Assembly: GCA_027923505.1 (NCBI GenBank)
Contig: BROI01000041.1
Location: forward strand, 57,757-77,756
Reading direction: 5' to 3'
DNA: 20,000 nt
Origin: Mayamaea pseudoterrestris
Lineage: Eukaryota
Part shown: positions 1-19,800 of the stretch, one piece after another
Layout of the letters: the number at the start of each line of letters is the position of its first letter
How positions within the stretch are numbered: position 1 is the first letter of the stretch
Position numbers and translations under genes: made by a program
The notes under the pieces: generated by a model
The model's input: the letters and a program-made list of their open reading frames with translations, nothing else
What the model was told of the DNA's origin: nothing
Databases searched by the model: none

Positions 1-3000
1 TACAAAGTCGCGAGCATTGACTTGGATAAGCATTCAGCGTCGACTGTCGATCGCGGCGCGAGTGGCGGAGTATGGGGAGCGGACGGCCGCATCCTTACCG
101 AGGACAAGTTCCACAAGATTGAAGTCACTGGAGTCGGTGGTCTCAAACTTCCGGACCTGTCTACCGTCACAGCAGTCGCCAAGCTTAAGAGCACCAAGGG
201 TTGGGTCGTCGGCGAGTTCCATAATTACGCATATTCTGGAACCGGCAAGACGATTCATTCGAGTATGCAGATGGAAGCCTTCGGACTTCATGTCAACGAT
301 AAGCATTACAACTTTGGTGGCAAGTTACGAATCGAAACGCCAGATGGATACAAGTTTATGCTCGGAATGGAAAGTGGCATGGCGACCTTGCCAATGTTTC
401 CAGTGTCGGCGCATGAGCTTCACACCTTACCTCGGGTCATGATGACCTTCGATGGGCCTTGGGATCCGAACGAGTTTGACGTCGAGCCGACCGAGGACGA
501 CGACTATGACTCTTCGGATGACGATGACGACGAGGACGACGTACCGGACTTGTTGTCGCGCGACGAAGACGACGAAGACAGTGACGACGAAGAGGGCTTC
601 ACGCGCGTGACACGCTCGCGTACGCGGAATCGCACCCATCGTCAAAGCAACGTGACGTATACGAATCTCGGACACGACAATCAACCTGTTTACACCGAGA
701 AGGAGCTGAATGTTTGTGCCGTCGTACAGAAGTACAATGCGGATCTCGTCTATCAGCCCTACAAGTCTATCCTGCCAAAGAAACCCGATATCGACGCATT
801 GCTGCCGAACTTTGCATGGTACCCGGCGCAGACGATCAAGGATACTTTGCGCCACAGCACGCAGTTCAACATGCACGAGCGCCGATACCCCCCACGAATG
901 CATCGAAAGAGCCGATTCCTGAACGTCTACCGTCTAGATGATCGAGTGGCCCATGACACCATGTTCTTCGACGAACCTGCCATGGATGACCATATCGACG
1001 GACATGCAGGGTGCACATGCGTGCAGCTATTCTATGGTTGTCGCAGTCAGATCATTGTCGTGTATCCCATGCGGACGAAAGGTGACGTACCGAAACGATT
1101 CCGTGATTTCATCCGCGAGTTTGGAGCTCCGTTGGAAGTCTTCTCGGATAATGCGAAAGAAGCGATGAGTGCCGAGTTTGACGAAGTAATGCGCGAGTTC
1201 ATGATTCGCCGTCGTCATACATCGGAGCCGTACTATCAGAATCAAAATCCAGCCGAGCGCATCATCGGGCACGTAAAGGAAAGTCATGAACGACTTATGG
1301 ACCGAACGGGCACTCCGGCATGCTTCTGGCTACGCGCTTTACTCTTTCAGACCGAGATGTACCGTCATTTGTCGCATCCTGCCTTGGACGGCAAGTCTCC
1401 CATCGAGTTTATCACTGGGCAAGTCCCCGACGTGTCGAAGTATTTGCATTTTCGTTGGTTTGAAATTGTCAACTACTTTGTCAAGGATGTCGAGGCCCCG
1501 AAGACCCGCCAGCGCGCGGCGTACTGGCTTGGTCCCAACACGACGTGCGGAGACGACCTGACGTACTTCATCTGCGATTGCGAGACACACGAGATCATGA
1601 CGCGATCGGTTTGCTTACCCCGAAACGACCCAAAATTTTTGAACCTTCGCGTACCGGCACCTGCTTCCCCAGTCATGAAAGAAGGGGAGCCGCGTCTCTA
1701 TACCGTACCTGGTCTAGGTGGCGAGATCCTTATGCCGGAAATGATCAAGAAGATTACCGACGCCGACAGCAGAGACGATGATTCTTTCATTCCTGACGAA
1801 GACGATACCCCTTTGGTCGAGACGGTGGAATACCCGGAAGATGACGATATGACCGACGGGGAGCTAGATCCTAATCCTGCCGATGACGACGACGACAAGC
1901 CGAAGAAGAAGAACATCAATCCGTGGCGCAAACTCCCGAAGTATGCACCCGATGAACTTATCGGCAAGTCGTTTCTCATGAAGACGGACGACGGGCAAGA
2001 AGTTCGAGCGACCGTCATGAGCAAGCTGAACAACCGCGACGCCCAGAACCATCAAAACATTAAAATGATGCTGAAACTTGGTAACGGCGAAGCGGATGAA
2101 GTCATGTCCTATGTCGAGGTTTCCGATCTCTACGAGGCCGAAGTGAACCAAGACATGGCGAATCCTGAGCGTAAATGGTTCTTCAAGGAGATTCTAGACC
2201 ATCAGGGTCCGCTGACGAGCAAGTCGAAGAACTGGAAGCACTCCAAGTGGAACGTCCTTGTACAATGGGACGATGGATCCAAGACTTGGGAGCCTCTCAA
2301 CGCGATGATCGAAAGCGACAAAGTATCAGTGGCAGCCTACGCGCAAAAGCATAATCTTCTCGACAAGGACGGATGGGCATCGTTGAATCGATGGGCCCGG
2401 AACGCCAAGAAGGTTGCGCGCAAGGTGGCGACCGCCCGAATGGAGCAGCAGAAGAACGGACCGCGCTACAAGTTTGGAGTCCAAGTACCCCGAGATTGGA
2501 AGGAAGCGCGGCGTTTGCAGGAAGCTGCAGGGCACACGAAGTGGACGGATGCGGAAGGCGTGGAGCTTGCGAACCTGGACGAGTACGAGACGTTTCAAGA
2601 TCTTGGTCCGAGTTCCACCACAACACCACCAACTGGTTACCAGAAGATCCGAGTCCATTTTGTGTACGATGTCAAGCACGATTTGCGATACAAGGCACGT
2701 CTCGTTGCAGGCGGCCACATGACGAAAGACAACGACGATGCCTACTCCAGTGTTATCTCATTGAAGGCAATGCGTCTAGCTCTCGTCATTGGAGAAGCGA
2801 ACGGCAAGAAGTGCATGGTCGGTGACATTGGGAATGCTTATCTCGAAGCGTTCACCAAGGAGAAGGTATACTTCGTTGGAGGCCCCGAGTTCGGGGAGCG
2901 CGAAGGACACATCCTGGTCATCGTCAAGGCTTTGTACGGATTGCGAACGAGCGGAGCACGATTTCACGAACGCTTAGCCGACGCCCTACTTGCGGAAGGG

Positions 3001-4257
3001 TGGAAGCCGTCCTATTGCGATTCCGATCTGTGGATCAAGGACGCCGGCGACAGCTACGACTACCTCTGTGTATGGGTCGACGATCTGTTGAATATTTCAG
3101 ACGATCCAGCAGCGTTCTTCAAGATGCTAGAGGAGAAGTACAAGTTTAAGCTCAAAGGTGTTGGACATCCCGAGTATCATCTCGGCGGTGACTTTGGACG
3201 AGACCCTGACGGAACTCTTTACTGGTCGGCCAAGACCTACGTTGCGAAACTCTTGGCGCAGTACGAGCGTTTGTTTGAAGGTCCTCCGAAGAAGTATTCA
3301 TCACCAATCGACAAAGACGATCATCCAGAACTTGACCAAAGCGAGCTACTGAACGACCAAGAGAAGAAGATTTACCAGTCTCTAGTCGGAGCACTTCAGT
3401 GGGCGATTACTTTGGGACGATTTGACATTGCCGTTGCAGTTGTGAGTCTGTCGCGATTCCGTGTGGAGCCGCGCAAGGGACACCTGCAGCGGGTGAAGCG
3501 AGTCTGTGGATATTTGCGAGAGTTACCGGACGCAGCAATCCGTTTCCGTACGAAGTGGCCAGCCAACGAGGAGCACTTCGGCACCATGGAGGAACAAGAT
3601 TGGGAGCGCAGCGTTTACGAGAAGGACGGAGTTGATGAGATGTTGGACGTCTACCCACCGCCAAAGGGTGTGACTGTACGAACATCAACTTTCGAGGATG
3701 CGTGTCTCATGCATTGCATGGTGACAGGCAAGTCATTGGAAGGAGTTTTGTCATTTGTCAACCAGACGCCTGTCGACTGGCATTGCAAACTCCAGGCTAC
3801 AGTCGAGACTGCGACCTTCGGATCGGAATTCGGCGTAGCAAAGAGTGGAACGGATATCAGCATTTCTCTACGCGCGTCGCTCATGGCTATGGGCGTACCA
3901 TTGGAGAAGTCTGCCTGGATGTACGGAGACAACCAAGCAGTGATTACGCAATCTACAATCCCGAGTTCGACATTGTCCAAGCGACACAATGCGTTGGCCT
4001 ACCATCGTGTTCGTTGGGCAGTTGCTGCGGGAATTATCAAGTTTGTGAAGATTGACGGAAAGGAGAACATTGCGGACGTACTGACGAAGTACCTGCCGTA
4101 CTGTGATGCGATGCCATTGCTCAAGCCAGTATTGTTTTGGCGCGGCGATACATCGTATGCGATTGTGAAGGACAAGAATGCGGCTACGACGAGCAGCGTA
4201 CCCGAGGGGAGTGACAAGTCGCAGAGCGGCGAAGTCAAGAGCCCGAACCCTAATTAG
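1..4257 (+). CDS. Gag-Pol polyprotein, copy 1, 5'-partial (PR, IN, chromodomain, RT, RNase H)
   Basis: Frame is open from base 1 (YKVASIDLDKH...). Motifs: DRGA 49-60, integrase D955/D1147/E1255, chromodomain-like 2176-2385, WVDD 3073-3084, RNase H FEDA...SEF...GDN...ADVLTK. Stop TAG at 4255-4257 lies inside the LTR. Confidence 0.95.
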   Translation, partial: YKVASIDLDKHSASTVDRGASGGVWGADGRILTEDKFHKIEVTGVGGLKLPDLSTVTAVAKLKSTKGWVVGEFHNYAYSGTGKTIHSSMQMEAFGLHVNDKHYNFGGKLRIETPDGYKFMLGMESGMATLPMFPVSAHELHTLPRVMMTFDGPWDPNEFDVEPTEDDDYDSSDDDDDEDDVPDLLSRDEDDEDSDDEEGFTRVTRSRTRNRTHRQSNVTYTNLGHDNQPVYTEKELNVCAVVQKYNADLVYQPYKSILPKKPDIDALLPNFAWYPAQTIKDTLRHSTQFNMHERRYPPRMHRKSRFLNVYRLDDRVAHDTMFFDEPAMDDHIDGHAGCTCVQLFYGCRSQIIVVYPMRTKGDVPKRFRDFIREFGAPLEVFSDNAKEAMSAEFDEVMREFMIRRRHTSEPYYQNQNPAERIIGHVKESHERLMDRTGTPACFWLRALLFQTEMYRHLSHPALDGKSPIEFITGQVPDVSKYLHFRWFEIVNYFVKDVEAPKTRQRAAYWLGPNTTCGDDLTYFICDCETHEIMTRSVCLPRNDPKFLNLRVPAPASPVMKEGEPRLYTVPGLGGEILMPEMIKKITDADSRDDDSFIPDEDDTPLVETVEYPEDDDMTDGELDPNPADDDDDKPKKKNINPWRKLPKYAPDELIGKSFLMKTDDGQEVRATVMSKLNNRDAQNHQNIKMMLKLGNGEADEVMSYVEVSDLYEAEVNQDMANPERKWFFKEILDHQGPLTSKSKNWKHSKWNVLVQWDDGSKTWEPLNAMIESDKVSVAAYAQKHNLLDKDGWASLNRWARNAKKVARKVATARMEQQKNGPRYKFGVQVPRDWKEARRLQEAAGHTKWTDAEGVELANLDEYETFQDLGPSSTTTPPTGYQKIRVHFVYDVKHDLRYKARLVAGGHMTKDNDDAYSSVISLKAMRLALVIGEANGKKCMVGDIGNAYLEAFTKEKVYFVGGPEFGEREGHILVIVKALYGLRTSGARFHERLADALLAEGWKPSYCDSDLWIKDAGDSYDYLCVWVDDLLNISDDPAAFFKMLEEKYKFKLKGVGHPEYHLGGDFGRDPDGTLYWSAKTYVAKLLAQYERLFEGPPKKYSSPIDKDDHPELDQSELLNDQEKKIYQSLVGALQWAITLGRFDIAVAVVSLSRFRVEPRKGHLQRVKRVCGYLRELPDAAIRFRTKWPANEEHFGTMEEQDWERSVYEKDGVDEMLDVYPPPKGVTVRTSTFEDACLMHCMVTGKSLEGVLSFVNQTPVDWHCKLQATVETATFGSEFGVAKSGTDISISLRASLMAMGVPLEKSAWMYGDNQAVITQSTIPSSTLSKRHNALAYHRVRWAVAAGIIKFVKIDGKENIADVLTKYLPYCDAMPLLKPVLFWRGDTSYAIVKDKNAATTSSVPEGSDKSQSGEVKSPNPN
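4204..4211 (+). other. Polypurine tract (plus-strand primer), copy 1
   Basis: GAGGGGAG immediately 5' of the LTR-initial TG. Confidence 0.85.
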
Positions 4258-4587
4258 CTTGTGTCGAGTCCGCAGCTGTCGTATGTGACATGTGAATGAA
4301 GAAAGTGCGCAACCGTCGTGTGGATGCGTTGTATGAATGGAACGACCAGTTACGACTGATGTAATGTGATTGAAAGAAACGGATTGATCGGATGATCTTC
4401 CGAGTGGTCGATGTAGCGATGTAGCGATAAGCTCACAATATAGAACTACTAGTTTGCGACGAGAGTGCAGTCGTATTCGTGTAGTGGCGAGCGCAAGACT
4501 ATTCGACGAGCCATCTCCATCAAGAGCTGTACAGACCGTGGCCAAGGACCCTGTATCGGAGCTTTTTGGAGGTAAGACGTTGACTGC
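4212..4587 (+). repeat. 3' LTR of copy 1 (376 bp)
   Basis: TGACAAGTCG...CGTTGACTGC, repeated at 4588-4963 and 10896-11271. Boundaries are defined by the differing flanks of the three copies. Confidence 0.95.
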
Positions 4588-4963
4588 TGACAAGTCGCAG
4601 AGCGGCGAAGTCAAGAGCCCGAACCCTAATTAGCTTGTGTCGAGTCCGCAGCTGTCGTATGTGACATGTGAATGAAGAAAGTGCGCAACCGTCGTGTGGA
4701 TGCGTTGTATGAATGGAACGACCAGTTACGACTGATGTAATGTGATTGAAAGAAACGGATTGATCGGATGATCTTCCGAGTGGTCGATGTAGCGATGTAG
4801 CGATAAGCTCACAATATAGAACTACTAGTTTGCGACGAGAGTGCAGTCGTATTCGTGTAGTGGCGAGCGCAAGACTATTCGACGAGCCATCTCCATCAAG
4901 AGCTGTACAGACCGTGGCCAAGGACCCTGTATCGGAGCTTTTTGGAGGTAAGACGTTGACTGC
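4588..4963 (+). repeat. 5' LTR of copy 2 (376 bp)
   Basis: Starts TGACAAG directly after the GACTGC end of the previous LTR. Followed by GAAATCGTC. Confidence 0.95.
4785..4821 (+). promoter_or_regulatory. Possible LTR promoter: (CGATGTAG)x2.5 repeat followed by a TATA-like AATATAGAA
   Basis: The repeat is seen directly. Promoter function is inferred only from its mid-LTR position. Confidence 0.25.
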
Positions 4964-5079
4964 GAAATCGTCAACGGTGTTAGATTAACATTTCAGTGCT
5001 TTGAGAGCGAGAACGAGCGAGGGAGCTATCGTGACACATTCGTCTGCAGCGAGTCCGATTCCTCTGATCAACCTCCACC
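4964..5079 (+). promoter_or_regulatory. 5' leader at the PBS position, with atypical motif and hairpins
   Basis: No TGG after the LTR. Hairpins CGTTGAC-9nt-GTCAACG (4954-4976) and TGTTA-GAT-TAACA (4978-4990). Start context CCACCATG at 5075-5082. Confidence 0.6.
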
Positions 5080-6680
5080 ATGACGACGATTGATGTAACG
5101 ACCTACAAGCGTGCCGTCGGTAAAGTCTTCGATATTCCGTGGCTCGCAGCGTCCGCAGCTTGGGATCCAAACGACCCTACCGCAGTGTGTTTCGAGCAAG
5201 AGGAACTCACGACTGCGGAGGCGATGGCCGAACTGTCGGAACAAGACGTGACGAACATTAAGACCCAGTACCAGTGGTCGACGATACGAACAAGCCGATT
5301 GCGCAAGCTCATGAGTTGGATTCACGAGCAACGTCGGACGACTGCGCAATGGCAAGACTTGGAGAAAGACCAGATTACGAGCCGAGACCTCCCAGTAGCG
5401 CCGGGGTCACCGACAGCAGGCAACCGCAGTTTCGGAGACTTCAGCGTTATCGGAGGCAACGACACCACGACGAAACGACACGACATCAAGCTGGATCTGA
5501 AGACCATGCTGGAGCTCAAGAACGATCGCAAGTTCTGCTCCTACTGGCGGGCCTTCAAGAACCGCATGCGAAGCGAGCGACTTGGCTACTTTTGGGACGA
5601 CGAGTTCAAGGCACCAGCCGCACTCGACCCCGAATTCGCCGAGTATAAGTATCAGTGTTCGAAGCTTTTAGCGGCGCTCGAGTATACCTGCAAGACACCG
5701 CAGAGCAAGCTCATTGTCCGCAAGCACATCGACAGCGCGAATGCCTCAGCGTGCATTGCAGAGTTGGAGGCGACATTCCTCGACGGGATGGCGCGCAAGT
5801 TGGATCTACGTTCGGCCGAAGACGAATGGCGCAATTTCACTCTCGACGCGAGTTACGCCAAGTCTCTCGTCAATTGGCTTATCCAGTGGTCCAGCAAGGA
5901 AGAGAACTACAATGACTACGCCGAGGAAACCGAGCTACTTACAGCAAGCACGAAGCGTCAGATTTTGGAGCGCGCGGTTTTCCGCCATGCGGATATGGCA
6001 TCGGCGGTGAACATGGCGCTGATCGAAGAGTCCAAGACCGGCAACCCGATGACGTACACCCAGTTTTGGAACCTCCTGAACGACGTCGCACGTCAATCTG
6101 ACAATCGTCGTGGCATCAAGGAGACCGAGAAGCGTCAGGCGAACCAATCTGAGCAGACCAAGAAAGAGAAGGAGAAGACGAAGAAGGCAAGCGCGAACAA
6201 TTCCCAGTCTACGCCAAGTAGCAGCAACAATCAGCAATCCAATCAGGGGGGCGGTGGTCGCGGCGACTTGAGCACGGGACGAGGCGGCGGCGGCCGCGGT
6301 CGGGGAGATACTCGTTCGTATGTTCGCAGCTATGCCGACACGAAGACGATCGAAATTCCCAGCGACGTGAATGCGACGATTCCACCAAACACGTGGCGAC
6401 TCCTTACCCGCGATCAGCAACACGAAGTGTTTGAACGCCGTGGTACGAGTCGAGCGGCCAGTGCTGCAGGTGGTTCGACATCAGCAACACAGGCAGGCAC
6501 CACGCAGACGACGAGTACAACACGCAACGCAAACGTCGCAGCCACTTCATCAGCGGCAACGACGGCGAGTGCGGCGACCGAACGTGTGAACAACACCAGC
6601 CGTGGCTCAGCGATGCGAAGTTTCTTAGGTCCAGACCAGCCCACGACTACGACTCGGGGAGCGAATATCGCTCAGAGTCG
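5080..6680 (+). other. Gag region (no CCHC knuckle; RGG-rich segment ~6247-6309)
   Basis: Lies N-terminal to the protease. LEYTCKTPQSKLIVRKH...NASACIAEL resembles copia Gag core. Contains GGGGRGDLSTGRGGGGRGRGD. Confidence 0.75.
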
Positions 6681-9600
6681 CAAGTACAAAGTCGCGAGCA
6701 TTGACTTGGATAAGCATTCAGCGTCGACTGTCGATCGCGGCGCGAGTGGCGGAGTATGGGGAGCGGACGGCCGCATCCTTACCGAGGACAAGTTCCACAA
6801 GATTGAAGTCACTGGAGTCGGTGGTCTCAAACTTCCGGACCTGTCTACCGTCACAGCAGTCGCCAAGCTTAAGAGCACCAAGGGTTGGGTCGTCGGCGAG
6901 TTCCATAATTACGCATATTCTGGAACCGGCAAGACGATTCATTCGAGTATGCAGATGGAAGCCTTCGGACTTCATGTCAACGATAAGCATTACAACTTTG
7001 GTGGCAAGTTACGAATCGAAACGCCAGATGGATACAAGTTTATGCTCGGAATGGAAAGTGGCATGGCGACCTTGCCAATGTTTCCAGTGTCGGCGCATGA
7101 GCTTCACACCTTACCTCGGGTCATGATGACCTTCGATGGGCCTTGGGATCCGAACGAGTTTGACGTCGAGCCGACCGAGGACGACGACTATGACTCTTCG
7201 GATGACGATGACGACGAGGACGACGTACCGGACTTGTTGTCGCGCGACGAAGACGACGAAGACAGTGACGACGAAGAGGGCTTCACGCGCGTGACACGCT
7301 CGCGTACGCGGAATCGCACCCATCGTCAAAGCAACGTGACGTATACGAATCTCGGACACGACAATCAACCTGTTTACACCGAGAAGGAGCTGAATGTTTG
7401 TGCCGTCGTACAGAAGTACAATGCGGATCTCGTCTATCAGCCCTACAAGTCTATCCTGCCAAAGAAACCCGATATCGACGCATTGCTGCCGAACTTTGCA
7501 TGGTACCCGGCGCAGACGATCAAGGATACTTTGCGCCACAGCACGCAGTTCAACATGCACGAGCGCCGATACCCCCCACGAATGCATCGAAAGAGCCGAT
7601 TCCTGAACGTCTACCGTCTAGATGATCGAGTGGCCCATGACACCATGTTCTTCGACGAACCTGCCATGGATGACCATATCGACGGACATGCAGGGTGCAC
7701 ATGCGTGCAGCTATTCTATGGTTGTCGCAGTCAGATCATTGTCGTGTATCCCATGCGGACGAAAGGTGACGTACCGAAACGATTCCGTGATTTCATCCGC
7801 GAGTTTGGAGCTCCGTTGGAAGTCTTCTCGGATAATGCGAAAGAAGCGATGAGTGCCGAGTTTGACGAAGTAATGCGCGAGTTCATGATTCGCCGTCGTC
7901 ATACATCGGAGCCGTACTATCAGAATCAAAATCCAGCCGAGCGCATCATCGGGCACGTAAAGGAAAGTCATGAACGACTTATGGACCGAACGGGCACTCC
8001 GGCATGCTTCTGGCTACGCGCTTTACTCTTTCAGACCGAGATGTACCGTCATTTGTCGCATCCTGCCTTGGACGGCAAGTCTCCCATCGAGTTTATCACT
8101 GGGCAAGTCCCCGACGTGTCGAAGTATTTGCATTTTCGTTGGTTTGAAATTGTCAACTACTTTGTCAAGGATGTCGAGGCCCCGAAGACCCGCCAGCGCG
8201 CGGCGTACTGGCTTGGTCCCAACACGACGTGCGGAGACGACCTGACGTACTTCATCTGCGATTGCGAGACACACGAGATCATGACGCGATCGGTTTGCTT
8301 ACCCCGAAACGACCCAAAATTTTTGAACCTTCGCGTACCGGCACCTGCTTCCCCAGTCATGAAAGAAGGGGAGCCGCGTCTCTATACCGTACCTGGTCTA
8401 GGTGGCGAGATCCTTATGCCGGAAATGATCAAGAAGATTACCGACGCCGACAGCAGAGACGATGATTCTTTCATTCCTGACGAAGACGATACCCCTTTGG
8501 TCGAGACGGTGGAATACCCGGAAGATGACGATATGACCGACGGGGAGCTAGATCCTAATCCTGCCGATGACGACGACGACAAGCCGAAGAAGAAGAACAT
8601 CAATCCGTGGCGCAAACTCCCGAAGTATGCACCCGATGAACTTATCGGCAAGTCGTTTCTCATGAAGACGGACGACGGGCAAGAAGTTCGAGCGACCGTC
8701 ATGAGCAAGCTGAACAACCGCGACGCCCAGAACCATCAAAACATTAAAATGATGCTGAAACTTGGTAACGGCGAAGCGGATGAAGTCATGTCCTATGTCG
8801 AGGTTTCCGATCTCTACGAGGCCGAAGTGAACCAAGACATGGCGAATCCTGAGCGTAAATGGTTCTTCAAGGAGATTCTAGACCATCAGGGTCCGCTGAC
8901 GAGCAAGTCGAAGAACTGGAAGCACTCCAAGTGGAACGTCCTTGTACAATGGGACGATGGATCCAAGACTTGGGAGCCTCTCAACGCGATGATCGAAAGC
9001 GACAAAGTATCAGTGGCAGCCTACGCGCAAAAGCATAATCTTCTCGACAAGGACGGATGGGCATCGTTGAATCGATGGGCCCGGAACGCCAAGAAGGTTG
9101 CGCGCAAGGTGGCGACCGCCCGAATGGAGCAGCAGAAGAACGGACCGCGCTACAAGTTTGGAGTCCAAGTACCCCGAGATTGGAAGGAAGCGCGGCGTTT
9201 GCAGGAAGCTGCAGGGCACACGAAGTGGACGGATGCGGAAGGCGTGGAGCTTGCGAACCTGGACGAGTACGAGACGTTTCAAGATCTTGGTCCGAGTTCC
9301 ACCACAACACCACCAACTGGTTACCAGAAGATCCGAGTCCATTTTGTGTACGATGTCAAGCACGATTTGCGATACAAGGCACGTCTCGTTGCAGGCGGCC
9401 ACATGACGAAAGACAACGACGATGCCTACTCCAGTGTTATCTCATTGAAGGCAATGCGTCTAGCTCTCGTCATTGGAGAAGCGAACGGCAAGAAGTGCAT
9501 GGTCGGTGACATTGGGAATGCTTATCTCGAAGCGTTCACCAAGGAGAAGGTATACTTCGTTGGAGGCCCCGAGTTCGGGGAGCGCGAAGGACACATCCTG

Positions 9601-10941
9601 GTCATCGTCAAGGCTTTGTACGGATTGCGAACGAGCGGAGCACGATTTCACGAACGCTTAGCCGACGCCCTACTTGCGGAAGGGTGGAAGCCGTCCTATT
9701 GCGATTCCGATCTGTGGATCAAGGACGCCGGCGACAGCTACGACTACCTCTGTGTATGGGTCGACGATCTGTTGAATATTTCAGACGATCCAGCAGCGTT
9801 CTTCAAGATGCTAGAGGAGAAGTACAAGTTTAAGCTCAAAGGTGTTGGACATCCCGAGTATCATCTCGGCGGTGACTTTGGACGAGACCCTGACGGAACT
9901 CTTTACTGGTCGGCCAAGACCTACGTTGCGAAACTCTTGGCGCAGTACGAGCGTTTGTTTGAAGGTCCTCCGAAGAAGTATTCATCACCAATCGACAAAG
10001 ACGATCATCCAGAACTTGACCAAAGCGAGCTACTGAACGACCAAGAGAAGAAGATTTACCAGTCTCTAGTCGGAGCACTTCAGTGGGCGATTACTTTGGG
10101 ACGATTTGACATTGCCGTTGCAGTTGTGAGTCTGTCGCGATTCCGTGTGGAGCCGCGCAAGGGACACCTGCAGCGGGTGAAGCGAGTCTGTGGATATTTG
10201 CGAGAGTTACCGGACGCAGCAATCCGTTTCCGTACGAAGTGGCCAGCCAACGAGGAGCACTTCGGCACCATGGAGGAACAAGATTGGGAGCGCAGCGTTT
10301 ACGAGAAGGACGGAGTTGATGAGATGTTGGACGTCTACCCACCGCCAAAGGGTGTGACTGTACGAACATCAACTTTCGAGGATGCGTGTCTCATGCATTG
10401 CATGGTGACAGGCAAGTCATTGGAAGGAGTTTTGTCATTTGTCAACCAGACGCCTGTCGACTGGCATTGCAAACTCCAGGCTACAGTCGAGACTGCGACC
10501 TTCGGATCGGAATTCGGCGTAGCAAAGAGTGGAACGGATATCAGCATTTCTCTACGCGCGTCGCTCATGGCTATGGGCGTACCATTGGAGAAGTCTGCCT
10601 GGATGTACGGAGACAACCAAGCAGTGATTACGCAATCTACAATCCCGAGTTCGACATTGTCCAAGCGACACAATGCGTTGGCCTACCATCGTGTTCGTTG
10701 GGCAGTTGCTGCGGGAATTATCAAGTTTGTGAAGATTGACGGAAAGGAGAACATTGCGGACGTACTGACGAAGTACCTGCCGTACTGTGATGCGATGCCA
10801 TTGCTCAAGCCAGTATTGTTTTGGCGCGGCGATACATCGTATGCGATTGTGAAGGACAAGAATGCGGCTACGACGAGCAGCGTACCCGAGGGGAGTGACA
10901 AGTCGCAGAGCGGCGAAGTCAAGAGCCCGAACCCTAATTAG
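5080..10941 (+). CDS. Gag-Pol polyprotein (1953 aa), intact
   Basis: Single ORF with a Kozak-like ATG. All copia catalytic motifs are present in order, with no stop or frameshift. Confidence 0.97.
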   Translation: MTTIDVTTYKRAVGKVFDIPWLAASAAWDPNDPTAVCFEQEELTTAEAMAELSEQDVTNIKTQYQWSTIRTSRLRKLMSWIHEQRRTTAQWQDLEKDQITSRDLPVAPGSPTAGNRSFGDFSVIGGNDTTTKRHDIKLDLKTMLELKNDRKFCSYWRAFKNRMRSERLGYFWDDEFKAPAALDPEFAEYKYQCSKLLAALEYTCKTPQSKLIVRKHIDSANASACIAELEATFLDGMARKLDLRSAEDEWRNFTLDASYAKSLVNWLIQWSSKEENYNDYAEETELLTASTKRQILERAVFRHADMASAVNMALIEESKTGNPMTYTQFWNLLNDVARQSDNRRGIKETEKRQANQSEQTKKEKEKTKKASANNSQSTPSSSNNQQSNQGGGGRGDLSTGRGGGGRGRGDTRSYVRSYADTKTIEIPSDVNATIPPNTWRLLTRDQQHEVFERRGTSRAASAAGGSTSATQAGTTQTTSTTRNANVAATSSAATTASAATERVNNTSRGSAMRSFLGPDQPTTTTRGANIAQSRKYKVASIDLDKHSASTVDRGASGGVWGADGRILTEDKFHKIEVTGVGGLKLPDLSTVTAVAKLKSTKGWVVGEFHNYAYSGTGKTIHSSMQMEAFGLHVNDKHYNFGGKLRIETPDGYKFMLGMESGMATLPMFPVSAHELHTLPRVMMTFDGPWDPNEFDVEPTEDDDYDSSDDDDDEDDVPDLLSRDEDDEDSDDEEGFTRVTRSRTRNRTHRQSNVTYTNLGHDNQPVYTEKELNVCAVVQKYNADLVYQPYKSILPKKPDIDALLPNFAWYPAQTIKDTLRHSTQFNMHERRYPPRMHRKSRFLNVYRLDDRVAHDTMFFDEPAMDDHIDGHAGCTCVQLFYGCRSQIIVVYPMRTKGDVPKRFRDFIREFGAPLEVFSDNAKEAMSAEFDEVMREFMIRRRHTSEPYYQNQNPAERIIGHVKESHERLMDRTGTPACFWLRALLFQTEMYRHLSHPALDGKSPIEFITGQVPDVSKYLHFRWFEIVNYFVKDVEAPKTRQRAAYWLGPNTTCGDDLTYFICDCETHEIMTRSVCLPRNDPKFLNLRVPAPASPVMKEGEPRLYTVPGLGGEILMPEMIKKITDADSRDDDSFIPDEDDTPLVETVEYPEDDDMTDGELDPNPADDDDDKPKKKNINPWRKLPKYAPDELIGKSFLMKTDDGQEVRATVMSKLNNRDAQNHQNIKMMLKLGNGEADEVMSYVEVSDLYEAEVNQDMANPERKWFFKEILDHQGPLTSKSKNWKHSKWNVLVQWDDGSKTWEPLNAMIESDKVSVAAYAQKHNLLDKDGWASLNRWARNAKKVARKVATARMEQQKNGPRYKFGVQVPRDWKEARRLQEAAGHTKWTDAEGVELANLDEYETFQDLGPSSTTTPPTGYQKIRVHFVYDVKHDLRYKARLVAGGHMTKDNDDAYSSVISLKAMRLALVIGEANGKKCMVGDIGNAYLEAFTKEKVYFVGGPEFGEREGHILVIVKALYGLRTSGARFHERLADALLAEGWKPSYCDSDLWIKDAGDSYDYLCVWVDDLLNISDDPAAFFKMLEEKYKFKLKGVGHPEYHLGGDFGRDPDGTLYWSAKTYVAKLLAQYERLFEGPPKKYSSPIDKDDHPELDQSELLNDQEKKIYQSLVGALQWAITLGRFDIAVAVVSLSRFRVEPRKGHLQRVKRVCGYLRELPDAAIRFRTKWPANEEHFGTMEEQDWERSVYEKDGVDEMLDVYPPPKGVTVRTSTFEDACLMHCMVTGKSLEGVLSFVNQTPVDWHCKLQATVETATFGSEFGVAKSGTDISISLRASLMAMGVPLEKSAWMYGDNQAVITQSTIPSSTLSKRHNALAYHRVRWAVAAGIIKFVKIDGKENIADVLTKYLPYCDAMPLLKPVLFWRGDTSYAIVKDKNAATTSSVPEGSDKSQSGEVKSPNPN
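6720..7160 (+). other. Aspartic protease domain (DRGA active-site variant)
   Basis: STVDRGASGGVWG, with DRGA at 6733-6744 in the D-[ST]-G-A position. Confidence 0.75.
7615..8340 (+). other. Integrase catalytic core (DDE)
   Basis: VAHDTMF (D 7639), FSDNAKE (D 7831), NQNPAER (E 7939); spacing D-x35-E. Confidence 0.9.
8860..9069 (+). other. Chromodomain-like module at the integrase C-terminus
   Basis: WFFKEILDHQ...WNVLVQWDDGSKTWEPL fits the chromodomain pattern (E.ILD.R...YLVKW.G....TWEP). Confidence 0.8.
9328..10203 (+). other. Reverse transcriptase domain (copia type)
   Basis: YKARLVAGGH, DIGNAYL, KALYGLRTSG, WVDD (9757-9768), YQSLVGALQW. Confidence 0.95.
10360..10779 (+). other. RNase H domain (copia type)
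   Basis: FEDA, ETATFGSEF, YGDNQAV, NIADVLTK. Confidence 0.92.
10888..10895 (+). other. Polypurine tract, copy 2
   Basis: GAGGGGAG directly before the 3' LTR, inside the ORF. Confidence 0.85.
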
Positions 10942-11271
10942 CTTGTGTCGAGTCCGCAGCTGTCGTATGTGACATGTGAATGAAGAAAGTGCGCAACCGT
11001 CGTGTGGATGCGTTGTATGAATGGAACGACCAGTTACGACTGATGTAATGTGATTGAAAGAAACGGATTGATCGGATGATCTTCCGAGTGGTCGATGTAG
11101 CGATGTAGCGATAAGCTCACAATATAGAACTACTAGTTTGCGACGAGAGTGCAGTCGTATTCGTGTAGTGGCGAGCGCAAGACTATTCGACGAGCCATCT
11201 CCATCAAGAGCTGTACAGACCGTGGCCAAGGACCCTGTATCGGAGCTTTTTGGAGGTAAGACGTTGACTGC
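10896..11271 (+). repeat. 3' LTR of copy 2 (376 bp)
   Basis: Third copy of the repeat. Identity ends at GACTGC; the flank begins CAGTCCCCG. Confidence 0.95.
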
Positions 11272-12034
11272 CAGTCCCCGGGCTTAACCGACTTCAGTTT
11301 CAAACCTTGCCCATTTGCTCCATCATTCCTGTTTGTCTATGCTTGGACACATGCTTGCAGTGAGATTGGTGCATAAAAATAATCCATAGCTGATTCCAAG
11401 AAGCTACGGTATGGGAGGGCAGTTCAGACATCCACACAGGTACCAGCTCCATGGTGCTAAATTGCATGACCTTCCATATCTTCCCCCAATTGTAGTCATG
11501 TTCCATCAATCCTGTTTGGATATGCTTAAAGCTGGTGAATTCAATGACTGCTGGGTTTGGTCCAATGATTTGCTCCAAAGTGGTGACAAAAAAGTTGTTT
11601 GGCAAGATTTTTTTCAGTGCCTTTGGAATGCTTGGATCTTGGTCGACGTGCACACCAACTCATTCTAAATGGGTTCTTACAGTTTGTCACAATATAAAGT
11701 GTCAAACCTCGTGCGGCGTTGCCTCCGAAAGCAAGTTTATAGATGGAAGTGACATGTTCCAGCATGTGGCACATTTCATCATCCGGCGCCATGTTGCCGG
11801 ATTGCTGGCGAGTATCTGATGCCATCAAATCTTTGAATGTACTTATTCGATGGAATTATATTAGTATGCGCCTCCGTCACAAGCTGATGGTCATTTTGAG
11901 CCAAGAGAAGGAATTTAAATATGTAGTATCTTTCCATGAGAAAGGTAGAGTAGTAGGCAGTGAATGTCAGCATGACAGGCACCAAAGCCTTTGCTAGTTT
12001 GGAATTGGCTGTCATGGTGGTCTACTTGGGAAGC

Positions 12035-12360
12035 TGTTAATCGTTTGTTAATCGTTTGTTCACGACAACATTATTTTTCCTCGACGTGAAACGAGGCTCC
12101 AAACGTCGCATCGTGACCAACGAGCTGCAGTGGCTCTTGCGGCACTGAAATGACTCAAGGACGTTTAGCTACCGTGTTTTGTATGCATTTAATCCTGTGC
12201 AGGGTTGAGTCACATTGAAAACTGAGTGAAATCGCTGATCTATCGAGGCTGAACCTTGACGTGAACCCAGTGAGAACGAGAAAGAAACGAGTAGAGTAGC
12301 GTAGTAACATGCACTATTAGCAATTGAGTTTGTTTGTTTGCTTTACGCTGACTAAGAGGT
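12035..12360 (+). mobile_element. Probable LTR plus leader fragment of another related copia element (LTR ~12035-12227)
   Basis: Begins TGTTA. GAAATC at 12228 is followed 14 nt later by GCTGAACCT. GAGAACGAG (12272-12280) is shared with the intact element's leader (5009-5017). No second LTR to confirm. Confidence 0.45.
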
Positions 12361-12369
12361 TGATCGCTT

Positions 12370-15300
12370 CCTAGTCCATTGTAGTCGCTTGGAATAAAGG
12401 TTCGTCTGATATTATCGTGTCACTGATTAGTGCCTTTCCGTCGTAAATCGTGCTTGAATCAAATATCATACAAGACAGTTGGGATAATCTCGATTGATCT
12501 GCGAACGCTTGTGACCATTAATCTGATTTAATTCCGCTCGAATCGTATTCCACAGCGCGTATTGCTGTTGATCTCGCCGAGCTTTTCGTGATCTTCATAA
12601 TTGCGCCGCAACCTTACGCCAAATTTGTAACGCACGCTTGTTTCGATTCGTCACCAAGGGCTCTCGCTCTGTCAAATGGTTGCTGCTTCCATCCTGGCTT
12701 GTCAAGTGCTTGAGTCCATACTCTGCGAAAGATGGGGATCCTTCTCTTCATGATCGCAGAGGTGCTCCCACGTCGTCGTTCGCCAGTCCATTCACAAGAA
12801 CGCTTTGAACTTCCTTTGTTGTCGGATCGTTTGTTTCAAATATTAAGCTCGTGTCCGATTACCTTCATGAATACCCACTGAGTCTTTTGTTATTGTCCAT
12901 CTGTCGCTCAATTAAATCTGACAGTTTGTTGTAACTTATTAAGTCCTTCTACTGGCTCCTCACCCATCTGGATCAGGAAAACTTGTTGTTTCGAGTAGTT
13001 CAATATCGCTGATTCTTTGATATATTCGCATACAGTTGCTCCCATTTTCTGACTGTTTTCGTGTTCCTCACGAACGTGCATCCGATGAGTTCGCTTGGAG
13101 AGAACAGAGGGCATTTATTCCCTGATTCTGCTCAGCCTTCTAAAGAACTTTGCTGGTACGCTACGTGGTTTCCACACTGGAATCATTTCCTCGTCAAGTT
13201 CCTTCGTAGTTGTCGTGACTACTTTCTGTCGCAGACTCATGCTATGGTAGCATCCTGTCGCAAGATCTGGTGTTTCGTAACTTTGTTTGCTTGCGCTCAA
13301 GCTGCTTTTTCAGAGTTCTCCCTCCAGACTCAGGGAAGCTGAAGGCAACTCTTGTGGTAATGCGAAGCCGCGCCGAGACCATCTTGAGCACGGAATCGCC
13401 TGAAGCGTGTCGCGTCCGTCAGAACAAGAAAATAGTTTTTGGATGCCCAGAATCGGTGTTGCCAGATCGCACGCTGCGGGAAAACTCCTCTGCGCCTCAA
13501 ACGTGACCGGTTCCCACCACTTGAAATGTAACAGCAAAATATCCAGCAGATTGAACGCAACTTCCGTTGGAGTGCGCCATCAGCTACCACAGTCAGAATC
13601 ATGATTACAAATTTAATCAGAAAACTCAGCAAATGGCTGGGCAAACCTGAATCTTGTTGAGGTTCTCCAAGAGTGCCACGTATGTACGGGATTTTGTTCT
13701 GATGACTGGTTCTGTGGTCACTTGAGGAATATTGTACATATGCATAGAGACTCACGGCTTTGCCAGTCTCAGACTTGGCATTATCACTGAGCAGTCCGTT
13801 AGGAGCGCCCACTTCGCGGAATCCTCTAACGCGCTTGAATTTCTCTCCATTCATGTAGCCAAGGTGTAAAAACTTTCTCGCCCAACAAAGAGCTGCATCT
13901 AGTAGCTCCCATGCCCTAGAATGTCATCCAAAGTTGTGTCAGAGTGTATTGTAACCGTATTTAATAGTTTGGCAACCGCTTTCGAACATTAAATTGTGGA
14001 TTTGTGAGGTGTCAAAATTTGACGCGGATGTTCGCAGATGATACCATGTCAGTGTGACGAAAGTCTGTTGAACTTGCTCAGTCGAATCCGCGCCAAAGAG
14101 CAGTATAGTCCGGTTTCGCTTTTGTAGCCCGCAAATTAAGCGTGAAATCCGAGGTGCAATGCCTGTGTTGAGTTTGTTGGGGTGTGATGATTGGGTGCGG
14201 ATAATCATTGTCTAATCGTCACAAAAGATCCATAATCGTGGTACGTCTTGAAATTGTCATGCGCGTGCTTGACATCGTGAAACGGTCGGGTCTGACGGCA
14301 CGTCCGACGCCATTAGACAGTCGGATACTTATCCAAATCATCAACGTGGGCTTCGCTTATGGTCCAGTACAATACTAACGCAAATTGCCAATGACAAAAC
14401 GTAGCCTGCAAACGTTCATCGTAATTTGTTGCGTTACGCCAAACATGGCTGAAATATTGTCGACTCGGGACGCCCCATTGCGCGCAATTGATTTCGGGCA
14501 ATGAATCGTTGGTCCATCTTAGCTACTGGTGACACATCAGAAGAATGGTCTCGCCACTAAGGTCTTAGCCAGTCCAGCTGCAGTGCCAATAGAGGGGAAA
14601 TATGATCAGCAAACCAGTCATACTTGGCGTTGCTTCTGAAATTTAATCCCTCCGCATAAGCCTCCGTTTCAAACACCGAGCTGGGCAATGATCCGCTGGT
14701 CAGAGTGTGCGCGAAGGCACACAAATGATGCTGAGCTGAAAGTAACTCATCTGGTGTTATCAGTCGTCAATGTAGTAATATTATTATTCGTGCAGAACCG
14801 ATCAGCAGTCATTTGGACTGACATTCCACTATTGCTGGCTGAATGATAATTGTGCCAGGAACACTTGCGATCGTCAGCTACAGATTCCGTTGCGTGACAC
14901 TCTGGTGCGCCAAGGTGACTTGCGCTCCGCGTCGTAGTTTTGCCTTATTGGTTGCGCACCGATCTGCTTTGCAGTTGGGATGCTTGTCCTTCAACTGCTT
15001 TCACTGGATCGAATTCATCTCCAACATTCATCCTTCACGCCAAGGTGAGGTTCTTCATGATCGAAATTGTTCCGCGATGGTTGTTGGAGTCGCACTGCTC
15101 ATTGCCGGCTCTTGTTCCACTAGACTGCGCTGATTGATTGTGCACTTAGCATGCTGAGGGTGCTTTCTATCATACTTTATGCAACACTCTTTCTAAGTGC
15201 GTATACAATGCACAATTGTCTTCCAAGTCGTGTTGCCCCATGTGTTTCTTGATGGATTCGCAAAACCTGCTAGCGAAGCGCTGAATCCAGTGTTTGGAGA

Positions 15301-16280
15301 AAGCGCCGTAGCATGTTGTATCATTAAACCAAGAGTTCTGCGTGCCTGAAAGCAGCCAGATGACTTCTTGTAGAACAGTGCAAGAAATTTGATCGTCAGC
15401 TCTTGAATTCAGTCGGCCGCATTCCTGAGTGTAGTTCCGTCGAGCGTTTCCTTCCGATGTGAGCAGTAGCGCTCTTCGAATCAAGGTCACAATCTTTGGT
15501 AGACTTCGCATCCATCATCTTCTTTGAACTGCTGTACTGCGAGTGAAGACGGAGTTCGACAGTGCGTGAGAAAGATCCGGCACACAAACACATTCTTCTT
15601 TACACGCCTTTCTGTTCCTTTGGTTCCTTTTCCTTGGGGCCATAATCATCATCAATACGTGGTAATGTCGCGATGATAATTTGGAAATCCACTGTTTCCA
15701 TGAGGAATCCAGCTACGCCTTACCCTTCACCGAACTTGTATAGACTTTGTACTTATTCACATTGGTTCTTCGGCGGGTCGATGTCGTGACTGCTTCTCGT
15801 GTCCACGTCCATGCTCATCGGTGGTCTTTGTCAGCAGAATTGCCTTCGACGTGTTTCGTAGCGTGGAGTCCTTGATCGCTCTGGATTTGGTGTGGAGGTC
15901 TCATCCGCCCCCGCCAGAATGTTGACGTTGGACGTTGTTGGCTGTGTGAAAGCCAGGTTGGTGGTCAGTTGCGACCATGTCTTGATGTCCGGTGACTCTG
16001 CGCCCAAATTACCATTCAATCGGGTTCATGATCTTTGTTGTTACATCTTCTATGAACGCTCTAAGTCAGAATCCATGCTGGAAGCAACGATATTCACCTT
16101 GACCAGTGCTGAGTACGGATAGCTTCGGGTCAACACAATATTTCACCGAATGCAGAACGTTGGTCGAGCAACTTTGTAGACCCACTCTAATTATGGAACG
16201 GCAATTGTAAGCATGAGAGTAGCCTTTGTGCTACGATCGCTGAGGTTCAGCGCTCCACGTTCCGAGATTTCCAGGAACGG
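12370..16280 (-). pseudogene. Degenerate CoDi-like copia element (gag-PR-IN-chromodomain-start of RT; rest of RT/RH missing)
   Basis: Minus-strand fragments collinear with the intact protein: gag-like ~15170-15510, KPDYTAL (~14100), DDILGHGS..MQLFVG (~13880-13930), REVGAPNGLLSDNAKSE (~13770-13820), LHFKWWEPV (~13510), WVFMKVIGHE/VLV/TTWEHL (12759-12877), RYKFGV (~12620), KHDLRRK (~12440). Many stops and frameshifts. Confidence 0.85.
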
Positions 16281-16424
16281 ATGTTGTGCTAGCAGCATCA
16301 TATACTGCTCGTGGGCCATCTCTCCCCCACCCCAACATCACAACACCAAACACAAATGTGTGTACCAAATTACACCAAGCACCATTAACGCATGACTTGG
16401 TCGGGGCCAAGATGAAACAACAAT

Positions 16425-16790
16425 GACCAGTTCGCTTGCAAAATGCAGCCCAAAGCTGGCCTTTTTCCATTCCAGACGTTCAACCTCCAGGTTACTTTCT
16501 GACTTGGTAGATGACTATGAGCAACATGAGCTACTTTGCTAAACACAACTTGGCCATCCACCCTAATGTCCATGGCTTTCCTTCTTTCATGACTACTGCC
16601 AACGAATGCAGTCCAAGGCTGGCCTTTTTCCTTCCAGACCTTCTACTTCCAGGTTACTTTGGAATCGGTAGATTTGACATGAGCTGCACGAGCCACTTTG
16701 CCAAACGCAACTTGGGCTGTGGCCATGTCGATTGTTACAGATAAGCTGGCTTTTTCCTTTTCCCTGACTTTTATTACTTCTGGGTTACTT
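16425..16790. repeat. Degenerate tandem repeat, unit ~162 bp, two copies plus a partial third
   Basis: ATGCAG.CCAA.GCTGGCCTTTTTCC...CCAGGTTACTTT...GGTAGAT...ATGAGC...ACTTTGC.AAAC.CAACTTGG at 16443-16553 and 16606-16715. Partial GCTGGCTTTTTCC...GGTTACTT at 16745-16789. Confidence 0.85.
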
Positions 16791-16899
16791 ATGACGCTGA
16801 CCAAGTTCGTGGAAGGGTGCCATGGCACGGATGTACAGTACTTGCTCTGGCACCCACAAAGGAGCACATGAAATGATCTATTCTGCACATTAATTATGT

Positions 16900-19800
16900 T
16901 AGTGACTGTTCAATGCCCCATGAATGGATGGCATGACCATAACTGGCAAAATTGTCAGCTTTGTTGGCTACCATTTGTGGATGATACGGACTTAGGGAAT
17001 TTGCGGAACCGGCATAGCAGCAGAAATGCAGCAGTCTCGACTATTGGGAAGGAGGACTCTTTGTTACGGTGTTTGTTCTGAGAAGACTTTCCTCATGGCT
17101 GATAACTGGCACGCTGACGGTTTGGTCTCTCAAGCCAGAAGGTGAATACCAGCACAGTCCAGTTAAGGACATGCATGGCGTCACTCAGCCTATACAGCGC
17201 CATCCAACGACCATGCTGGACAAACACTATCTATATGCGGATGGTAGTGAGTTGAGGCAGGCGTAAGTTCTGTGCGAGAAGTCCGTGGCATGGGCAAACA
17301 AGTTGTGAGCAAGCCATTTACCCCGTCATCTGGCCACGACAAGTTTTCTTTGGGCCACGTGCCTCACTCGCAAGCAGTGCCAACGATTCAAGGGCCAGCA
17401 ATGACAGCAGCTTAAATTGTCCGTAAGGTATTGGCAGTGACACACCTAATGCAGTCTGTACGTCCTGTCAAGTTGCAAGGTCTGGGATATGTTACCACCC
17501 AATTGTTCACTCCACATCGAGGCACTGGCGTTTCGTTTCAGAGCATCCATCACGCAACACATCACAACTATACGTCAGCTCAGAGCAGTTGAAGCTTTTT
17601 AATGGTATCAATGGTCCTTTGTTTGACGAGGATATGTCTCGAGTCCATACAACAACTAAAAGGATCATTTACAGCGAAAAGATGACTCATTCTATCCAAC
17701 TCCTGGATGATTTGCCTGTCTTCCAGCCATGGCGAGATGGAGACCCGCCATTATGGAAGTGTTTACAATAATGCTGACTGGTCACTCACATTGGGTATTC
17801 TGAACCGCTGTCGCATCTTTCTGCAATTGCTTTACTCTTTCCGACATGGTGCACGCTGATGGCGTTTATACTTCACTGAGGCAGCATGGAATGGACAAAT
17901 TGACAAGTCACGCGATACTCATTACCCTGGCCAGCACAAGGTCCTTTTGTCGATCGCTGCTGGGCACTCTGGAGAACAGCACTGCAGCATCACTGGTGTA
18001 CTCGCAAATCGCAGTTACGCTACAGCTTGGGGCGTGGATGACACGGAGCCTACTACAAGATTTTATTCTTAGCCCAAGGCTTGATATTCTCATGGAGAAA
18101 AGGCTGGCAGGCTGGTTTCAATATGGTTACAGTGGGACGGATGCGTCGTCGCGTTTGACAAAAGTTAGGCAGTGCCGCGCCACGATTAGCTCTCGAGTAT
18201 CCGCCCAAATGGTTAGCCCCATGCAGGTCTGATTCAACAGTTGGGGTGCTTCCATGGCTGCTACTTCTACTCCATCACTGTCTGTTCTGGCATCCATGCG
18301 TGTTTACCTTTCCTGAGCCATCTCGCGGGATTCTCGACCATGTTTCCCTTCTGCCGCCAGATGAAGGGGCTGCAATGTCACGTGCACTCCAGAATGGTTC
18401 GGTTGTCGCAGGGAGGGTCCCACGAGCCCATCGTTGCAACCGGAGCTGCAGCCACTACCATCCAGGCCAAAATGTTATACTCTAGTCCTGACACGACAAA
18501 GTGCTTACGAGTGAACTGATTGGTTGTACTAAACCATTGTCCTTGTGCACCTGCTCTGCCGAGCAATATAATGTGACAGAAGGTCTTGAGCTTGCTTACA
18601 ATGGCCTCTCAGCCCTCAAACAAGCTAGCAAGGTTCAATCACGGACACCATTAAGCCAGTCCTTGATGATCTGCTGTAAGTGCTGATGTGTGAACCATTC
18701 AATGGAAAACACGATGTCCTGTCACAGAGGAACGAGGTGGTTGGAAGGCTCAACTTGTGGGTCCCCTGTCGACCTCTGAATGATCTGGATGGGGTGTTTC
18801 ATGTTCAGTTTGCGGATCACCACGGATCCCATGCTCAGTTCTCTATAAGGAAATAATTCATTTGCATAGCAATCAAAAGAAGTACAGTTCGTTTGGCGAG
18901 CAAGTGAATGTACACCCTCCTGAATTATTGGCGCAGTAGGGCAAATTTGGTGACTCCACGGATGCAATGTGGATTGGCAAGCTTCTTTCAAAGCTAAAGT
19001 CTGCCACTGGGGCGCCAACAACACCAGACCAAAATGATCTTCCAAATTTGTGGCAGTCCGCCACCGCACTAAATTACGGAACTATCCCAGGAAGACACCA
19101 TCATGCCTGCAACTCCTTCACCAGTCCAGGTCATAGAAACGGTGGACCATTTGTGCATATCTGTCCAGGAGCTGACACCTCTGACTGAGTGCATGGAAGA
19201 ATTGACAGCAAGCTCATTCACCTTGGCACACTTGGCCCATTCGTACAGTAATTGTGGAGGGCCTCAAAGCATGGCATTCTAGCTCTGCTCCACCAGTTCA
19301 TGCCAAAAAAAATTCAATCCAAGCTTTGATCACAGCACAGAATCACCAGGTGGCACGCAGTTTGAGGGGCGCTTGCCATTGGATGGGCAGCAGCCAGGAA
19401 CAACACGTTGCTCAATGCTAACCGCATACATGGGGAGGCGCTGGTAAAGATAACACTATATTGCTATTGTCGAGTTAAATATTTGGATATATGGTCACAG
19501 CGCAATAACGACCAAGGGAAACTGGCATCAGAGCCTCGACCGCGCCGGCAGGTTGATGAAGAATCTCTGCGCTGGGCATAACATTGCTCATCTGCGCAAC
19601 CTCATGAAGCGAAAACCCGCGTATCCAACAGCGCCGACAACAAATAGCTTGCTCTATCAGGTCCCGCACTGAGTCAGTTTGATCACAACAACACTGATGA
19701 GAGGGTAGTCCAAGGCCAGTAATCACTAATGCAACGGCCTTTTTCTACCCTCTCTGCAAACAATAACCGAACAAGGGAGCACTCCACCAGCATGTTCAAA

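Follow-up and report, generated by a model that had tools for sequence, protein, structure and literature searches.

The segment at positions 4954-4993 is probably the 3′ end of U5 followed by the primer-binding site (PBS) of a half-tRNA-primed LTR retrotransposon of the Ty1/copia type. It lies in a window of 20,000 nt from Mayamaea pseudoterrestris, the whole stretch of DNA that was analysed. The earlier note on this DNA had described the same place as having no tRNA PBS, and as carrying instead a conserved bipartite motif in hairpins, with GAAATC (box 1) followed after 13 or 14 nt by a G.T.AAC.T box (box 2). The sequence facts of that description stand, while the conservation of the bipartite motif across the family does not.

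The window contains two head-to-tail copies of one LTR retrotransposon, and positions 1-4587 are 100% identical to 6685-11271. The 376-bp LTR, of the form TGACAAG...GTTGACTGC, is present three times with 100% identity (4212-4587, 4588-4963 and 10896-11271). The base right after the LTR differs between the copies, being T, G and C in the continuations TGACAAG, GAAATC and CAGTCC, respectively. The features of the element are as follows.

4212..4587, forward strand: 3′ LTR of the upstream copy, whose 5′ side is cut by the window; no spacer to the next LTR
4588..4963, forward strand: 5′ LTR (TGACAAG...GTTGACTGC) of the complete element, with bounds taken from repeat identity
4954..4976, forward strand: U5 hairpin with stem 4954-4960 / 4970-4976 and loop 4961-4969 (TGCGAAATC)
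4964..4982, forward strand: 19-nt U5 tail by homology, GAAATCGTCAACGGTGTTA, after the 5′ LTR and missing from both 3′ LTR copies
4983..4993, forward strand: putative PBS of the half-tRNA type, GATTAACATTT, matching the consensus GATTAACAGTC at 9 of 11 positions
5080..10941, forward strand: single gag-pol open reading frame of 1953 aa, Ty1/copia type, with its stop codon 46 nt inside the 3′ LTR
10888..10895, forward strand: polypurine tract GAGGGGAG, directly before the 3′ LTR
10896..11271, forward strand: 3′ LTR of the complete element, ending ...GACTGC before the flank CAGTCCCC

The polypurine run GAGGGGAG stands immediately 5′ of TGACAAG at the 3′ LTR copies. Since the gag-pol frame reads 46 nt into the 3′ LTR (10896-10941), the coding sequence includes the polypurine tract and the first part of U3. 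The frame contains an RVT_2 reverse transcriptase (PF07727, E = 8.7e-21, 75 bits against a cut-off of 31.6 bits) and, upstream of it at about residues 898-942, a weak match to the integrase core rve that falls below the cut-off (E = 0.091). In three relatives (P0007, P0012 and P0031), PF00665 is listed ahead of PF07727, an order which points to the Ty1/copia gene arrangement as judged from domain matches. A chromodomain-like stretch between the integrase and the reverse transcriptase has no Pfam support.

The two copies meet at 4587/4588, where one LTR abuts the next with no spacer, no shared LTR and no target duplication. This LTR-LTR pair looks like a 2-LTR junction or a cDNA dimer and not like the usual array, in which LTRs and internal regions alternate and neighbouring elements share an LTR. 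Contigs of the DNA sequencing runs X1, X2 and X5 show the order polypurine tract, LTR, GAAATC and gag, and the sequencing-run contigs compared with the window have no base differences over 4588-5001. In run X4, the library type of which is unstated, a contig with a different left flank is joined at the LTR start (4587/4588). The summed contig depth of that run, which is an unreliable measure, is about 10,000-17,000 over the LTR (4612-4935) and about 1,000-2,500 over gag.

The 5′ LTR is followed by GAAATC (4964-4969) and not by a TGG site for a tRNA 3′ end, and the initiator-Met half-site is also absent at the LTR end, as had been said before. A 7-bp hairpin straddles the LTR end, with the arms CGTTGAC (4954-4960) and GTCAACG (4970-4976) around the loop TGCGAAATC, and a second hairpin, GUGUUA-GAU-UAACAU, is found at 4977-4991. 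All of this agrees with the earlier description. It also speaks for that description that the repeat-defined LTR end coincides exactly with the start of GAAATC and is seen in two separate junctions. That end (4963) sits inside the hairpin loop. The fold of the 71-nt region is unremarkable (z = -0.58; 51 of 200 shuffles fold as well). No tRNA genes are present in the window, and the comparison with Rfam gives only a sub-threshold match to SCARNA7 (19 bits against 65). The absence of a tRNA PBS, in contrast, is not borne out, as box 2 (GATTAACAT, at 4983) is the proximal part of a site, GATTAACAGTC, that occurs throughout the family. What makes a PBS appear to be missing is a repeat-defined LTR end (4963) that falls 19 nt before the ancestral U5 end (4982).

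The family was collected by a protein search, which gave 646 relatives at E <= 1e-20 among 8000 candidates scored, all of them environmental proteins. An alignment of 25 relatives was used to bring in 80 metagenome loci. The 11-mer GATTAACAGTC is found on the coding strand in 50 of these 80 loci and the variant GATTAAGAGTC in 2, with none on the other strand and about 0.1 expected by chance. Many of the 28 loci that lack the site look like short partial contigs that may miss the 5′ region. The sequence logo reads TTgaCA immediately before the site and GATTAACAGTCgcAa from its first base onwards, and outside about -6 to +13 the information is at background. The dinucleotide right before the site, counted over 46 unique instances, is CA in 40, TA in 5 and GA in 1. 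Eight relatives have an xAGGGGAG run followed by TGNCN, the exact inverted 5-mer of which ends at the site, and these bound LTRs of 343-551 nt. When the inverted-5-mer test is applied to all 52 instances, 15 pass, as compared with 11.6% of random 5-mers. Locus L047, the sole relative with a true 3′ flank, has an LTR that ends ...ACGAGTTCA, 2 nt before the site. A PBS within 0-2 nt of the 5′ LTR end is thus a feature of the relatives (L047 at 2 nt, and the eight loci of the polypurine and inverted-repeat test) and not of the window, where the distance is 19 nt. The conserved 11-mer, the preceding CA and the LTR ends at the site in relatives identify the 11-mer as the PBS of the family, flush with U5.

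Hairpins a few bases before the site are frequent in the family and are formed by unrelated sequences (mean z = -0.91; 13 of 47 below -1.5), and in L047 the U5 hairpin is present in both LTR copies. Fourteen contigs of about 6.5-7.5 kb (L006, L007, L010, L011, L013, L020, L040, L041, L044, L070, L074, L075, L076 and L078) overlap at their two ends by 55-127 nt with 100% identity. Each is a circularly permuted unit of one LTR and one internal region, and results either from assembly collapse or from real tandems or circles. Because of this permutation, the LTR ends of these contigs are unreadable from repeats. A DNA-pattern search for further near relatives gave one match among genome contigs, in a bacterial contig, which was judged to be chance. 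The same kind of search in viral contigs gave 17 matches, none of them related by tblastn or blastn, and a polyprotein search of the viral contigs gave no match. tRNA genes were absent from the 44 of 80 relative loci that were scanned.

The family 11-mer GATTAACAGTC is the exact complement of nucleotides 30-40, in the anticodon arm, of a bacterial tRNA-Asn(GUU); the window matches at 9 of 11 positions, 8 of them contiguous. The complementary 11-mer, GACTGTTAATC, occurs four times in a 4.7-Mb bacterial genome, every time at nucleotides 30-40 of one of its four tRNA-Asn(GTT) genes (ARAGORN). Placement within the tRNA was done by coordinates for the four genes, and one was read base by base. By general tRNA rules, the 11-mer comprises two stem pairs plus the 7-nt loop with U33, A37 and the anticodon GUU. 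Under the same rules, both site variants have a T at the U33 position, a purine at 37 and complementary flanking GA/TC, and differ only at base 34, where GUU stands for Asn and CUU for Lys. The assignment to Asn is provisional, since it is based on a bacterial gene and general tRNA rules and not on the host tRNA-Asn. Loci L019 (at 88) and L020 (at 112) carry GATTAAGAGTCGTGG in place of GATTAACAGTC, a change of one base at the anticodon wobble position. The change from Asn GUU to Lys CUU in these two loci suggests, at the level of the site sequence, a primer switch within the family.

The closest relative, L001, has 77% nucleotide identity to the element and is the only near relative in the set. 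It has a single LTR copy, between the pol end and gag. The window reads GACGTTGACTGC GAAATC GTCAACGGTGTTA GATTAACATTTC, and L001 reads GCTGTTGACTTT CCCTTT GTCGACGGTGTCA GATTAACATTTC; the loop in L001 is TTTCCCTTT. The two sequences differ at 2 of 14 stem positions (both of which still pair, via G-U), at 7 of 9 loop positions, at 1 of 6 tail positions and at none in the site GATTAACATTTC. The divergence of stem and loop is unequal (Fisher p = 0.007), and ACGGTGTYAGATTAACATTTC matches at 20 of 21 positions between L001 and the window. In L001, a polypurine run plus TGACA on one side and TGTCA followed by GATTAAC on the other bound a 403-nt LTR that reaches the site. By homology, the U5 of the window would accordingly end at 4982, with TGTTA where L001 has TGTCA. 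Since the stem, the tail and the PBS are kept and the loop is free to vary, GAAATC is the loop sequence of a U5 hairpin. The wider family gives the same picture for box 1, which is missing from its other members: GAAATC occurs in none of 46 unique relatives within the 45 nt upstream of the PBS.

In the mechanism proposed, a 5′ fragment of a tRNA-Asn(GUU)-like tRNA would anneal to GATTAACA(TTT) at 4983-4993. The host tRNA is probably of the Asn type, and its cleavage point would lie at about nucleotide 40. Pairing would involve the anticodon loop together with the 3′ strand of the anticodon stem, for which the tRNA would have to read ...GACUGUUAAUC at nucleotides 30-40 and ...UGUUAAUC at nucleotides 33-40. 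Reverse transcriptase would extend the primer end leftwards, through GTGTTA and then the U5 hairpin. GAAATC would be a mere loop sequence of this hairpin and no priming box. The earlier note had proposed a different priming or end-definition signal for the lineage. One of its options, a site for a tRNA fragment, comes close to the truth for box 2, and the new priming mechanism itself is not needed. Counting against the half-tRNA reading are the match of the window site at only 9 of 11 positions, the U5 end in TA and not CA, the distance of 19 nt from the LTR end, the halt of two separate junctions exactly where GAAATC starts, and the above-chance occurrence, elsewhere in the window, of two sites with GAAATC and a common 9-mer at one spacing.

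The two 3′ LTRs of the window break off at one common base of the hairpin loop, 19 nt before the ancestral U5 end. Because the LTR-LTR junction (4587/4588) and the LTR-flank junction (11271/11272) stop at one and the same base, a one-off deletion is no easy explanation. No inverted-repeat relation links the ...GACTGC end to the left end TGACAAG, whereas the 4982 end has one (TGACA on the left; on the right TGTTA in the window or TGTCA in L001). At the junction of the 3′ LTR with the flank (11266-11276) there is an 11-nt palindrome, GACTG-C-CAGTC, with the last LTR base at its centre. Hairpin opening or end joining may have left it there, or it may be due to chance. The short ends, the abutting LTRs and the palindrome would fit an end-joining of cDNA ends that had been cut in the hairpin, as far as can be inferred from the junctions. 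Non-canonical processing or joining of the ends, and not a new start site, is the more probable origin of the short 3′ ends.

A new start site is nevertheless the strongest of the other readings, although it is unlikely. Minus-strand synthesis would begin opposite 4963, either with another small RNA as primer at GAAATCG... or following a cut in the hairpin loop, and the tRNA-Asn-like box would be vestigial or accessory. Such a shift of the end would account for two junctions that end at an identical base, the last one before GAAATC, and for an ancestral site that has weakened to 9 of 11 positions. The 100% identity of all LTRs indicates that the copy is recent, GAAATC is met again at two places further along the window, and 3 of 26 diatom copia (CoDi) families are reported without TG/CA LTR ends (PMC2806351). 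However, GAAATC and its neighbours are unconserved in L001 and in the 46 relatives, and it is the downstream box that is conserved. The ...GACTGC end also lacks the inverted repeat to TGACAAG by which an integrase could recognise it, which the 4982 end possesses. Complementarity between the LTR and 4964-4995 is at chance level (245 of 300 shuffles do as well), and the complement of the bipartite motif lies in no tRNA gene among the 119 viral-contig matches listed.

The two other places with GAAATC were correctly located in the earlier note, and both are exact matches to GAAATC-N14-GCTGAACCT. Together with the remnants of an older element they are situated as follows.

12228..12256, forward strand: exact GAAATC-N14-GCTGAACCT; the 116 nt downstream resemble the 5′ UTR of the element
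16243..16271, reverse strand: exact GAAATC-N14-GCTGAACCT; GAAATC is in the loop of a CGTTCC/GGAACG hairpin (fold z = -1.94)
12558..13958, reverse strand: degenerate copia-like integrase region of an older element (tblastn; profile positions 832-1311, i-E down to 1e-07)

The 16271 site is about 2.3 kb upstream of the degenerate integrase remnants, on the same strand. Neither a reverse transcriptase part nor an LTR pair was found for the older element at 12558-13958. Just past the 16271 site there are two direct copies of about 112 nt (16442-16553 and 16605-16715) with 83% identity. When up to 3 mismatches to the bipartite pattern are allowed, 33 of 200 control shuffles give at least two matches. 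The anchored test asks whether any two GAAATC sites have a 9-mer in common at the same offset within 40 nt. Such a coincidence is seen in 16 of 3000 mononucleotide shuffles, and the pair of remote sites is therefore probably not due to chance. Their similarity to the intact element appears weak to marginal in sequence comparison. Over the 51-nt core it is reached by 49 of 2000 shuffles for the 16271 site and by 483 of 2000 for the 12228 site, and over the 116 nt downstream by 9 of 1000 for the 12228 site and 95 of 1000 for the 16271 site. LTR-like similarity was not found upstream of either site. An old related element may have had its 5′ UTR at the 12228 site, to judge from the similarity downstream, and both remote sites may be primer regions of older elements with a common host-specific feature.

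Such a feature would be expected if the U5 loop had an accessory role, a reading somewhat more doubtful than that of a new start site. Priming would take place at 4983, and the loop GAAATC would base-pair with a second region of the primer tRNA or be bound by a factor from the host or the element. The U5 elements of retroviruses and the extra boxes of Ty1 are precedents for an accessory contact. A host-specific contact would be shared by unrelated elements of one host and not by L001, which comes from another host. In three elements of the window GAAATC is followed after 13-14 nt by a G.T.AAC.T box, and two of the three have GAAATC in a hairpin loop, with stems that differ compensatorily (CGTTGAC/GTCAACG and CGTTCC/GGAACG). 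The low count of shuffles in the anchored test speaks for this contact as well, and the sites have no common LTR similarity, which argues against simple copy identity. On the other hand, there is no such hairpin at the 12228 site, and the homology of both remote sites to the intact element is marginal. The box GCTGAACCT presumably fits no anticodon-loop register under general tRNA rules, and it lies in no tRNA gene among the matches listed. The partner would be expected to contain GAUUUC or AGGUUCAGC in a tRNA or small RNA, and GAUUUC is absent from the one bacterial tRNA-Asn that was read.

The end position and the remote sites can also be combined in one tentative and rather improbable proposal. 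The U5 end of the integrated DNA would be set in the hairpin loop, 19 nt upstream of the inherited half-tRNA site, by a new minus-strand start or by a structure-specific cut of the cDNA end. A host-specific partner in this step would be marked by the loop sequence GAAATC, which three otherwise unrelated elements of one host have in common and which the 46 relatives from other places all lack.

Least probable of all is an origin outside priming biology, in which the head-to-tail pair with its short U5 ends would be an assembly artefact or a single aberrant insertion, made by end joining and duplicated afterwards. Points for it are the 100% identity of the copies over 4587 nt, their contact without spacer or target duplication, the palindrome GACTG-C-CAGTC at the right junction, which is a type of sequence found where hairpin ends have been joined, and the lack of an LTR-LTR junction in the contigs of runs X1, X2 and X5 (a weak point, as contigs can drop rare forms). 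Against it, the tandem unit is exactly one full element, beginning with the first base of the LTR and running up to the shortened end, which is unlikely without an element-specific process. The left end of the array is outside the window.

Drosophila copia and yeast Ty5 are primed by half of the initiator tRNA-Met. The priming principle of the present element is the half-tRNA principle of the copia/Ty5 class with a different tRNA. In the excerpted text of a paper on plant elements (PMC6317226), half-tRNA is one of three primer types, used as 1/2 tRNA-Met by Osser and Bryco and as 1/2 tRNA-Ile by Bianca. Like these elements, the present family has a PBS of about 11 nt that faces an internal anticodon-arm stretch and not the CCA end, that directly follows the LTR in the relatives and that is characteristic of the lineage. 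Unlike them, it uses a site of the tRNA-Asn(GUU) type (Lys(CUU) in 2 of 80), and the site in the window is 19 nt off and matches at 9 of 11 positions.

FunCo1, a copia element of filamentous ascomycetes, has the PBS ATTAAGAGTCT, which corresponds to an internal tRNA-Lys region (PMC5445492). The site GATTAAGAGTC of L019 and L020 contains 10 of the 11 bases of the FunCo1 PBS (ATTAAGAGTC), and the main family site differs from that PBS by one base, at the anticodon wobble position. The likeness concerns the PBS, and FunCo1 elements are different ones and probably belong to other hosts. The fungal GalEa elements, which share a copia branch with CoDi, have no PBS and possess a Conserved Hairpin Site, a 9-bp palindrome that includes the last LTR base and has a complementary box 12-41 nt away (PMC5445492). 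The hairpin of the window resembles it in being at the boundary between the 5′ LTR and the internal region, where a PBS is expected. In contrast to GalEa, the arms CGTTGAC/GTCAACG are non-palindromic, the first arm is within the LTR and a tRNA-type PBS follows.

Tf1-type self-priming is named in the excerpted texts of two papers (PMC5445492, PMC6317226), and the lack of a TGG site and the structured U5 region are reminiscent of Tf1. Self-priming, one of the options of the earlier note, was rejected, as pairing of the LTR with 4964-4995 is no better than in shuffles. The best LTR duplex has -15.2 kcal/mol, and 245 of 300 shuffled targets do equally well. An exact match exists only for the 7-mer of the local hairpin. 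Pairing of both boxes with a tRNA 5′ half (D-arm plus anticodon) was likewise rejected. The corresponding pattern, AGGTTCAGC-N12-16-GATTTC, has at least 119 matches in viral contigs, with none in tRNA genes among those listed (ARAGORN), a weak test that concerns tRNAs other than those of the host.

Literature searches gave no description of an Asn-type site for this group. Primer binding, tRNA and polypurine are unmentioned in the main text of the diatom paper (PMC2806351). The finding is largely explained by the half-tRNA reading, and the anomaly that is left is the setting of the U5 ends in the hairpin loop. One 11-nt site that corresponds to an anticodon arm of the Asn type, and that has a Lys-type variant, is common to a large environmental family of copia elements. 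Annotation tools that expect a TGG or an LTR-flush site would label such elements as PBS-less. The short 3′ LTR ends in the hairpin loop, if they are systematic, would bear on how the cDNA ends of these elements are made or processed.
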